Part shown: positions 1 through 4,926 of the stretch, in pieces
How positions within the stretch are numbered: position 1 is the stretch's first letter
Layout: each line of letters opens with the position of its first letter
Source: Octopus sinensis
Taxonomy: Eukaryota
Reading direction: 5' to 3'
Assembly (NCBI RefSeq): GCF_006345805.1
Contig: NW_021829839.1
Coordinates: 1 to 5,751, forward strand
Length of the DNA: 5,751 nucleotides
The notes under the pieces: model-generated
The model's database searches: none
Seen by the model: only the letters and a program-made list of their open reading frames with translations
Told to the model about the DNA's origin: nothing
Program-made: the position numbers and the translations under genes

Positions 1-120
1 CGTGTGGGTGCGTGTGTGTTTATGTACGTGTTTACACGCGAGTGCGTGTGTATGCTTATAGGCTTGGAGGCGTATATGTACGCGTGTATGTGGGTGTATA
101 TATCCATGATGATATGTATG
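1..120. repeat. Degenerate (TG/TA/CG)n microsatellite
   Basis: Alternating purine-pyrimidine low-complexity sequence. Confidence 0.85.
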
Positions 121-868
121 GTACTAGAAGTCCATTTAATTCAAGGAACCAGATTAAATGCTCATCAGCTCTGATTTACAACGCATTAAGTCCCCAGACG
201 AAACTGATGATGTACTGACAATTCTACAACTAAATTTTATCAATCTCCTGACCACCATACTTGGTCCATAACTCTATACATCCCTTATCTTTACATTCTT
301 TTACACTTTTATCATGTTTTTATCAGGTTTTTTACTTTTATTTCTATTTCTATTTTTACTTTATATTTCTTTATACCCCCTTTACATCTACTTACAACCC
401 TTTATCCTCTACATTTTATATTATTCTATACTTACACTTTTTATACATTTTTTATCCCTCGTCCCGAACTCTCGCCCCTCCATCTTCACCTCTATATATG
501 TATTTATTTATTTACATTACCTCAACATCCAATTTTCCTCATTCTACATTGAGAGAAGAAAGAGATGGACGCTTCAACTCTATGCTGCTGCCGCATTATG
601 TCGTACGTGAGTGAGAGGATTTGCATCCCCAACCAAGAATTTTTGATGTAACACATGTCCTTGTGGAAGCTGTTGTGCGCGGCTGAAGAAGGCCACAGAC
701 ATACATTATGCATTGTTATAAATCTGTCTAATAAAGGCCCGAAACATATGTACCGCTGAATCCTTCGCATCATGTTTTTATTTTATTTTGAACAATTTAC
801 TCCACCACCTACACCACCAAACGGTATACACAGGTGCTTATAATTATCAAGTACTCACCCCGAATTTC
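121..868 (+). mobile_element. Probable Penelope-like element (PLE) terminal fragment or retrozyme-like element carrying the hammerhead
   Basis: Bounded by a degenerate (RY)n tract (1-120) and an abrupt junction to (TA)n at 869. Contains a G-poor, T/C-rich tract (~280-550) followed by a type I hammerhead with palindromic stem III, a type known from PLE termini. No reverse transcriptase ORF is seen. The left boundary is approximate. Confidence 0.55.
679..756 (+). ncRNA. Type I hammerhead ribozyme (self-cleaving RNA)
   Basis: Stem I GCGG(679-682)/CCGC(753-756); core CTGAAGA(683-689); stem II A690.C740 then GGCC(691-694)/GGCC(736-739), extended by AGACA(697-701)/TGTCT(725-729); core GAAA(741-744); stem III is the palindrome ACATATGT(744-751); cleavage triplet GTA(750-752). 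All conserved single-stranded core nucleotides are present in type I order; the usual G10.1-C11.1 pair is A.C. Confidence 0.85.
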
Positions 869-2974: not shown

Positions 2975-3210
2975 AGCGCTTTTGGCTTTCGAATGAAAAG
3001 CCACTCTGCTGGCTGGGTGAACAGACCAGCACTCCGCCTGGCTGGAAGGCAATCCCGTCGCAAGGTGACCCATTGAAGGTTGAGTGAACTGGAGCAACTT
3101 GAAATGAAGTGTTTTACTCAAGAACCCAATGCGCCGCCCGGTTCCAGGAATCGAAAGCTCGAGCTAGCAATCGTAAGTGCAACACCTTAACCACTCGGCC
3201 ACGCGCCTTC
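2975..3210 (-). mobile_element. tRNA(Arg)-like CORE-SINE (possibly related to octopus OR2)
   Basis: Reverse complement begins GAAGGCGCG with A box TGGCCGAGTGG (3191-3201), an ACG anticodon-like loop (GCA-CTTACGAT-TGC), a degenerate B box CTTTCGATTCC (3147-3157), then CORE-like TTCTTGAGTAAAACACTTCATTTCAAGTTGCTCCAGTTCACTCA. The 3' boundary is approximate and the family name is tentative. Confidence 0.8.
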
Positions 3211-3456: not shown

Positions 3457-3737
3457 CAGGACGGACAAAGCTAGAAAACCAGGACCGACACAGCTACAAA
3501 TCCGAGACCGACACGGCTTAAAATCCAGGACCGACACAGTTTGAAATCCAGGACGGACACGGATAGAAATCCAAGACACACATAGCTAGAAATCCAGGAC
3601 GGATACAGCTAGAAATCCAAGACGGACACGGGTAAAGATCCAAGACGGGCACAGCTAGAAATCCAATACGGACACGGGCAGAAAACCAGGACCGACACAG
3701 CTAGAAATCCAGGACGGACACTGGTAGAGATCCAGGA
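3457..3737 (+). repeat. Minisatellite, 12 full units of 23 bp, consensus CAGGACGGACACAGCTAGAAATC
   Basis: Units start at 3457, 3480, 3503, 3526, 3549, 3572, 3595, 3618, 3641, 3664, 3687 and 3710, with a partial unit at 3733. Substitutions only, no indels. Confidence 0.97.
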
Positions 3738-3809: not shown

Positions 3810-4022
3810 AAGGCGGCAAGCAGGCGGAAGCGTTAGCACGCCGGACAAAATGCTTAGCGGTATTTCGTCCGTCTCTACTTTCGGAGTTTAAATTTCGCAG
3901 AGGTTGACTTTCCCTTTCATTATTTCGTGGTCGATGAAATAAGTACCAGTGGATCACTAGGGTCGATGTGATCTACTTACTCATTGCCCCGAAATTGCTG
4001 GCCTTGTGCCAAAATTTGAAAC
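3810..4022 (+). mobile_element. tRNA-derived SINE, family A, copy 2, with target-site duplication
   Basis: Starts AAGGCGGCAAG, has degenerate B box GAGTTTAAATT (3884-3894), and shares the central domain and tail of 1962-2186. Flanked by TAATATATAAATGTG (3794-3808) and TAATATATGAACGTG (4023-4037), 13/15 identical with two transitions. Confidence 0.92.
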
Positions 4023-4038
4023 TAATATATGAACGTGC

Positions 4039-4292
4039 TTCGTGTTGAGTTTCAGTCTGTATTTCTTGTGCAGCGCCGTTTCTAATAAGTTACAAAATGT
4101 CGTTTGTAATATTATTGCAAGTTTTTTAAGTATGTTACAAGATCCTCTCCTTTCTGAAAGAGTCTATAATTTTGAATGGCAGGTATTCTACGTTCGGTTT
4201 CTAAGAATGTCATTTGCAGTACTGCTACATGAATATCGAGCGCGATCGTACAGCTTTTTAGTTCCATTAAGGGGCTTTTAATACCTTTAATG
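4039..4292 (+). repeat. Left arm of a long diverged inverted repeat (appears to continue at ~3788-3809 beyond the SINE)
   Basis: 4166-4292 aligns to the reverse complement of 4610-4736 at about 98/128 by hand. 4039-~4134 aligns with gaps to the reverse complement of ~4791-4904. Confidence 0.88.
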
Positions 4293-4609: not shown

Positions 4610-4926
4610 CATTAACGGCATTAAAAACACTTTTATAGAATTAAAAGATCTTTATGATAACACACGATATTCATGTAGCAATACATGGATGATATTCTTA
4701 ATACCTGAACATAGAATACCTGCCATTCCAAATTATGGCAAAATCTTATTGTATTGAGCCTTTGAGATTATATAGAGGCGTGAGGAACGGCATCTATAAA
4801 ATCTTGCATTTAATATAGAGATATCATAAATGACACAGGTAATTGATACGAAGCGACGCTGCACCGGAGATATCAACGTTCAAAGTAAAACCTAGCAACA
4901 CGAATCTTGTTGATATGATAAGCATA
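4610..4926 (-). repeat. Right arm of the long diverged inverted repeat
   Basis: For example TAGAATACCTGCCATTC (4712-4728) is the exact reverse complement of GAATGGCAGGTATTCTA (4174-4190), and CGATATTCATGTAGCA (4665-4680) of TGCTACATGAATATCG (4223-4238). Confidence 0.88.

Follow-up and report, generated by a model that had tools for sequence, protein, structure and literature searches.

An Octopus sinensis contig carries, at positions 683-752 of its forward strand, an intact type I hammerhead ribozyme motif with a helix II arm of 51 nucleotides. Is this a real hammerhead, what carries it, and what would such an arm do? The window analysed here is one whole contig (NW_021829839.1) of 5,751 nucleotides. 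The genome searched measures 2.72 Gb.

The original prediction named a full hammerhead core and three stems, and both are there. The core consists of CUGANGA (CTGAAGA in the DNA, C3 to A9) at 683-689, GAA (G12 to A14) at 741-743, A15.1-U16.1 and NUH; together these take up 683-689, 741-744 and 750-752. The 5' strand of stem I, GCGG at 679-682, pairs with CCGC at 753-756. Stem III at 744-751 is the palindrome ACATATGT (= ACAUAUGU), for which an 8-bp duplex between two copies is predicted at -7.0 kcal/mol. The hammerhead consensus would place cleavage after GUA, which is to say after A752, between 752 and 753. Three helices with an open stem I make this the type I layout, judging by the pair check and by covariation in a sister group.

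The helix II arm spans 690-740. A690 and C740 adjoin the core; next come GGCC at 691-694 paired with 736-739, a bulge on the 3' side, a 5-bp helix and a weak tip. Where G10.1-C11.1 would be expected, the helix closes with an A690-C740 mismatch, or else A690 is an insertion next to a G691-C740 pair and a bulge. The 5-bp helix has two alternative registers. AGACA/TGTCT (697-701/725-729), the one originally named, can form, with an ensemble probability of 0.14, but ACAGA/TCTGT (695-699/723-727) competes with it at 0.38. A further subfamily of the same element, with 361 copies, has C696T and T725C, favouring an AGAC/GTCT register. The relative called family B below favours ACRGA/TYTGT, and varies between A and G at the site of A690. 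A proposed extension of stem I (662-669/763-769, probability 0.19) can be drawn but is not conserved: the shared variants C766G and A769C break it, and one subfamily has a different 5' side. With a 51-nt arm and an unconserved stem I extension, the motif lacks the canonical retrozyme-type features, which are a 4-bp helix II, a short loop 2 and contacts between loops 1 and 2.

Could AT-rich repeat DNA have produced this match by chance? Shuffled sequences are at least as stable as the region 655-775 (z +1.2), whose minimum-energy fold differs from the hammerhead. Rfam is silent too. A check against Rfam had been proposed, and it failed: the window has no Rfam hammerhead match, and this includes Hammerhead_1 (RF00163). 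Yet Rfam also finds no hammerhead in 20 related long-arm loci, and none in 20 short-arm Hydra-type loci. The model therefore does not cover this group, and a long arm cannot be the only reason for the miss. Across the genome, RF00163 gave 7 short-arm matches among the best 74 of 265,813 candidates.

The controls are clear. CTGANGA-N30-60-GAAAC-NNNN-GTH matches the window once, and none of 200 shuffles. The intact-core pattern of the window's own family, family A, has 1,450 genome matches where its control has 0; a pattern with a G-C-closed arm and a 28-58-nt spacer has 8,950 where its control has 4. The motif also sits where a ribozyme is expected in its carrier element. For practical purposes these controls exclude a chance match, and the hammerhead motif is confirmed as real.

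The original prediction likened the motif to the hammerheads of Penelope-like elements (PLEs) and retrozymes, and a PLE as carrier has held up. Positions 1-868 (+) read as the 3' UTR, or pseudo-LTR (pLTR), of a Hydra-type PLE. Family A copies match the window from 1 to about 868 and then continue into (TA)n, which in the window is the insertion target at 869-913. An inverted, 5'-truncated partner is frequent. An AC-rich 'tail' at 800-868 (+) lies between two preferred 3' ends of these copies. The best 40 of 1,250 candidates for the segment 640-800 were scored, and the 29 other loci fetched vary from the window only at 792.

The contig starts within the element, so the window holds no element ORF. 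In longer loci an ORF for reverse transcriptase and endonuclease (RT-EN) lies upstream of the motif; it is intact in L077 and L079, with 836 aa from the ATG. Among 30 loci chosen by the 5' part of the ORF, 11 also have the motif on the 5' side of that ORF. The predicted cut there falls 192-204 nt 5' of the ATG (6 loci). Consecutive predicted cut sites are 4,366-4,769 nt apart (7 loci), for an element unit of 4.4-4.8 kb with a 3' UTR of 2 kb. Between cut and ORF start there is another ATG, at 772, which in the upstream pLTR copy opens a frame of about 24 codons (read from L049).

There is a single ORF, RT followed by GIY-YIG endonuclease, as motifs and homologues indicate. With pLTRs, partial tandems, inverted 5'-truncated copies and a tail all present, this is how a PLE is recognised. 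The protein has RWA (39-41), DKT (126), YRDD (357), a CxCX5C linker and VIY..YIG (715-732). Measured against the Hydra clade as defined in section 11 of PMC8557442, the element has DKT for DKG, the CxCX5C linker without CCHH, CxxC and CxH (around E and N, near the protein end), and insertion into (TA)n. RWA stands at the position of the Hydra RWK motif, where aligned homologues mostly have RWK or RWR. At 4.4-4.8 kb the unit exceeds the 'generally under 3 kb' given for Hydra elements (PMC8557442), which is a tendency and not a strict criterion. Named homologues at 32-38% identity include proteins of Solemya, Argonauta hians and Watersipora. The RT went unrecognised in Pfam and PDB searches; among 27 aligned members, Pfam matched GIY-YIG in one and an RT family in none. 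The clade assignment therefore rests on motifs and homologues, and on that footing an autonomous Hydra-clade PLE is supported as the carrier. Family A is a young element, with its 1,450 intact-core copies.

Two other labels were considered. Neptune clade was dropped on the Hydra-clade definition (PMC8557442). A non-LTR retrozyme was rejected since the window's element codes for protein and the window has no tandem unit. A large Hydra-type group (L044, L134, L156, L157) lacks the cysteine linker before GIY-YIG and is still abundant.

The rest of the window contains other repeats. A frame at 2404-2610 resembles, by motif, what we take to be a fragment of a Tc1/mariner transposase; it has no Pfam match. 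A 23-nt minisatellite runs for 12 copies through 3457-3737. By eye, 1995-2075 and 3909-3989 are an inverted pair of related SINE-like repeats, and 3100-3210 (-) is tRNA-like, where ARAGORN finds no tRNA. Two 48-nt inverted repeats at 4166-4213 and 4689-4736, 85% complementary and 475 nt apart, are possibly a MITE.

If the motif works, its copies should preserve it, which was another check proposed at the outset. Among 76 aligned family A copies, sites with variants shared by at least three copies number 0 of 20 in the core and stem III, 4 of 50 in the arm (all at the tip), and 17 of 100 upstream (562-661). A bias enters this count, as the first 30 loci had been picked by their 99% identity over 640-800.

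The ends of genomic copies tell a different part of the story. Most of the 104 distinct alignment ends gather in two groups, with 43 at 781-802 and 49 at 864-881; these coordinates are shifted by a few bases, and some alignments are broken by short indels. Both groups lie 3' of the cut site and flank the AC-rich tail. Copies starting at 753 are not enriched: there are 7 matches, 3 of which are small indels, against 10 and 4 at control positions. New DNA copies nearly always span the cut site, so their template would be uncut or re-ligated RNA.

Copies that span the site, with no excess of 5' ends there, would also be expected if the fold were kept for dimerisation or for protein binding in RNP assembly, with cutting in vivo rare or never happening. 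Core mutants of an Anolis Poseidon element left insertion unaffected, and RNA-seq ends were absent at its site, according to the accessible part of PMC11167929. It remains that the full core occurs in more than 10,000 copies from many families (found with patterns that select for the core), and that family A has no shared core variant. For these reasons a non-cutting fold appears unlikely.

Contigs from sequencing runs, guessed to be RNA, that end at 755 were considered as cleavage evidence. T725C and word length explain them, and ends do not pile up among the contigs listed. The hexamer AATAAA (730-735) sits 17 nt 5' of the predicted cut and, together with a T-rich run at 772-790, resembles a poly(A) signal. 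It was rejected as a conserved one, being present in only 5 of 16 long arms.

Would one copy cut by itself, or are two needed? The original prediction was a palindromic stem III of the dimer type, and comparison bears this out. Stem III is 8 nt long in all 16 long-arm clusters, in 11 distinct sequences, and its centre is pairable in 15 of them; the descriptors left this centre free, with one source pattern fixing the flanking purine and pyrimidine. The lone exception is family B, with a non-standard G-A. Across the genome there are 104 centres of two purines and 69 of two pyrimidines, against 8,950 matches of the open-centre pattern, where the patterns differ slightly at the flanking positions and copies are not independent events. 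In the sister-group alignment, called A4, the centre pair is UA in 18 sequences, UG in 8 and CG in 5, and unpaired in 0 of 31. The central two bases would be unpaired in a monomer and must pair in a double hammerhead. Pairable centres are therefore comparative support for a dimer. Dimer cleavage has been predicted and partly shown, at low rates, in the accessible parts of PMC4209133, PMC6765202 and PMC3088659.

A monomer would have to make do with a stem III of 2 bp, capped by the 4-nt loop AUAU, and the long arm might then provide stability or tertiary contacts. Energetically this is not far-fetched, the forced monomer hammerhead lying merely 2.7 kcal/mol above the minimum, and invertebrate retrozyme hammerheads with a 2-bp helix III and a tetraloop are described in what is accessible of PMC7229834. 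Such a monomer needs no self-complementary loop. The clusters nonetheless vary in sequence while keeping a centre that can pair, in 15 cases out of 16. Cleavage as a monomer is accordingly very doubtful.

Folding calculations add some detail. In the monomer ensemble a rival hairpin (668-673/679-684), which would hide stem I and C3-U4, has a probability of 0.52, against 0.025 for stem I; its 5' side differs in another subfamily. A forced double hammerhead comes to -47.2 kcal/mol, against -35.4 (2 x -17.7) for two forced monomers. The free dimer fold, at -50.6 kcal/mol, is better than the forced double hammerhead because of the rival hairpin.

The extended stem II of the original prediction (51 nt, 690-740) turns out to be far from alone. 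Loci L001-L180 contain 213 motifs in 21 clusters, of which 16 have arms of 42-77 nt and 5 have arms of 14-31 nt; copy-level counts are dominated by a few families. The G-C-closed pattern excludes the window's family, so the genome's long-arm total exceeds 10,000. Between long-arm clusters, arm sequence and length vary widely, and stem I, which the descriptor requires, comes in 14 distinct sequences across the 16. Several long-arm clusters are preceded by EN or RT genes of the same type. A ribozyme was not seen next to the ORFs of L045, L090 and L091, or 3' of the ORF in L166. It is supported that the long arm is a property of the whole lineage and not of a single family.

Some related loci differ in ways worth recording. 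Family B, seen at L161:1865-3270 (G000:C1:50741800 onward), is non-coding, its unit of about 545 nt being repeated head to tail 2.6 times between two (TA)n stretches. Each unit has a long-arm hammerhead with a helix II like the window's and G-A at the stem III centre, and the family makes up most of 128 pattern matches. It looks like a retrozyme-like, non-autonomous partner of Hydra elements. In L099/L100 (G000:C16:25146363-25146839), hammerheads with short arms, whose 8-nt stem III is of the same kind, stand in tandem 431 nt apart. L044:7882-7924 (-) is a short-arm hammerhead close to the published Hydra-1_oBim motif, with an RT at 8268-8729.

Outside this genome, long arms are harder to find. 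The best 78 of 359 confirmed Hydra-type loci on metagenome contigs, which are marine, include 53 with a hammerhead on the sense strand; under the strict descriptor none of the 78 has one on the antisense strand. Many of these contigs are short, so missed motifs mean little. The 53 distinct arms measure 10-25 nt, and most of these motifs have a stem III of 9 or 10 nt. We made a quick, unrooted RT tree from 49 rows, 30 of them metagenome loci. A branch with an SH-aLRT of 100 separates the 5 long-arm rows from all 31 short-arm rows. The long-arm side also holds 2 Argonauta proteins and 8 rows whose ribozyme is unknown. The position of the Argonauta proteins, together with the L044 motif close to Hydra-1_oBim, points to an octopus as the probable host. 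All five families of this RT branch with a known ribozyme have the long arm. This is consistent with a single origin of the long arm, host and arm length being confounded in the tree.

Covariation had been suggested as a check as well. It is seen in the sister long-arm group, not in family A. The A4 alignment of 31 sequences has a 12-bp helix II in which 7 of 12 pairs have changed on both sides and 86% of cells are paired. Counted over the whole structure, double-changed cells come to 59, where shuffles give 25; when the partners are slid, 33-50% pair. The structure was read from those same sequences and the shuffle control is inflated by relatedness, so this covariation counts as support and not as a probability.

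Does the arm do anything? It may be an AT-rich insertion tolerated by a working hammerhead, with no role of its own, and paired merely to stay clear of the core. Arms diverge between clusters in sequence and in length (42-77 nt), and the window's arm has a weak tip. The genome also has short-arm motifs whose stem III is of the same type. Such a neutral arm is a serious contender, somewhat short of even. It fits less well with an arm in 5 of 5 families of one RT branch, and with double-sided changes along a 12-bp helix. The window's own arm (690-740) is not significantly structured compared to shuffles (z -1.23); of 19 representative arms, 13 fold better than shuffles at z <= -2. Whether the arm has its own role is about even.

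On balance, and going by sequence, we favour slow, mainly dimer-dependent and probably protein-assisted cleavage, with the arm as a peripheral scaffold. Two copies would pair through the ACAUAUGU palindrome into a double hammerhead, which would cut slowly and mainly when paired. The element's own protein probably assists. The partners could sit on separate RNAs, or be the upstream and downstream pLTRs, 4.4-4.8 kb apart, of a single read-through transcript. A cut after GUA would yield a unit-length RNA starting about 200 nt 5' of the ATG, for use as mRNA or for circularisation. DNA copies would be templated by uncut or re-ligated RNA. The 51-nt arm would be a lineage-specific structure kept as base pairs outside the chemistry, likely a scaffold for docking or protein binding. 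In all this, the sequence, element context, copy numbers, covariation, arm lengths and tree split are observations; we infer the cleavage, the dimer use, the help from protein and the role of the arm.

An mRNA might even be the main product, if cleavage served chiefly to supply uncapped message for cap-independent translation of the ORF. The upstream motif copy, 192-204 nt 5' of the ATG, is suitably placed, and type I hammerheads in the 5' UTRs of fungal viruses are a precedent (accessible part of PMC13725137). The upstream ATG at 772 speaks against it, as does the arm being 5' of the cut, which means that it would be lost with the other product in a linear RNA. This makes translation as the main purpose quite improbable.

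Hammerheads in PLEs are not new, and neither are those of the Hydra clade. Craig et al. (2021, PMC8557442) describe Hydra-clade hammerheads that, like this one, are type I, on the sense strand, in the pLTR and with an AC...GT stem III, in elements with the same (TA)n target and protein motifs. Their listed motifs have a stem II of 3-7 bp, loops of 3-10 nt and a stem III of 9-10 nt; the motif in the window has an arm of 51 nt, in a range of 42-77 nt over the clusters, and a palindrome of 8 nt. The list includes Hydra-1_oBim of Octopus bimaculoides, with a short arm (PMC8557442, File S2). The copy of a similar motif at L044 adjoins an RT only 28-29% identical to that of family A. File S2 also has a few non-canonical plant PLE motifs with 29-35-nt loops; of what turned up in print, these and the Naiad half cores mentioned below come nearest to the long arm.

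The minimal PLE hammerheads (Cervera and de la Pena 2014, PMC4209133; Lunse et al. via PMC6765202), going by the accessible text, resemble this one in three ways: helix III is short and palindromic, cleavage is predicted to take place in dimers, and helix II starts with an additional or mismatched base. What is called a 'larger than usual' helix II there has 7-8 bp (PMC4209133, accessible text), in contrast to the multi-helix arm found here.

Poseidon of Anolis (PAc; Frangieh et al. 2024, PMC11167929), again in its accessible part, is alike in having a hammerhead near the junction of pLTR and ORF, and two preferred 3' ends around an AC-rich tail, both 3' of the cut. Its tail sits between two RT start sites. 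Poseidon belongs to a different clade and its ORF starts inside stem II, while the ORF here is about 200 nt downstream. Its hammerhead is protein-assisted and not needed for insertion.

Non-LTR retrozymes similarly have type I hammerheads in repeats, but in tandem units of 170-400 nt, going by the accessible parts of PMC7229834 and bioRxiv 10.64898/2026.07.22.740005, while the window's element is autonomous and codes for protein. Family B, with its non-coding 545-nt tandem unit in (TA)n, is nearer to these. The accessible part of that preprint does not mention molluscs, and that of the giant squid paper only counts its 235 Rfam hammerheads.

Helix II arms of 40-80 nt in Hydra or cephalopod elements are not described in the full-text literature searched; subscription papers and the supplements of PMC4209133 may show some. 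The original prediction of a variant possibly from an uncharacterised cephalopod family holds up by comparison, though a short-arm Hydra hammerhead is already listed for Octopus bimaculoides. What appears to be new here is the long helix II arm. Earlier work already has hammerheads in the pLTRs of PLEs and in Hydra elements, including one Hydra family of Octopus.

A bolder reading is, in our view, speculative and rather doubtful. One octopod Hydra branch may have gained a long, structured helix II module that acts as a protein-gated dimer switch, bound by the RT-endonuclease, deciding between cut mRNA and uncut template. It would come with more than 10,000 ribozymes missed by standard descriptors, and with non-autonomous, retrozyme-like partners that have the same arm.

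In any case, short limits on helix II in descriptors can miss some 10,000 motifs in one animal genome. The far-apart core halves of Naiads, recorded as 'HHR_half_core' by Craig et al. (PMC8557442), may merit re-examination. Why Penelope-like elements keep a slow, dimer-type hammerhead is a standing question, and the data here give comparative support to the double-hammerhead model. This octopus genome also supplies the material for testing it: some of its elements are young and intact, its ribozymes form 16 or more diverged clusters, and nature has already exchanged one stem III palindrome for another.
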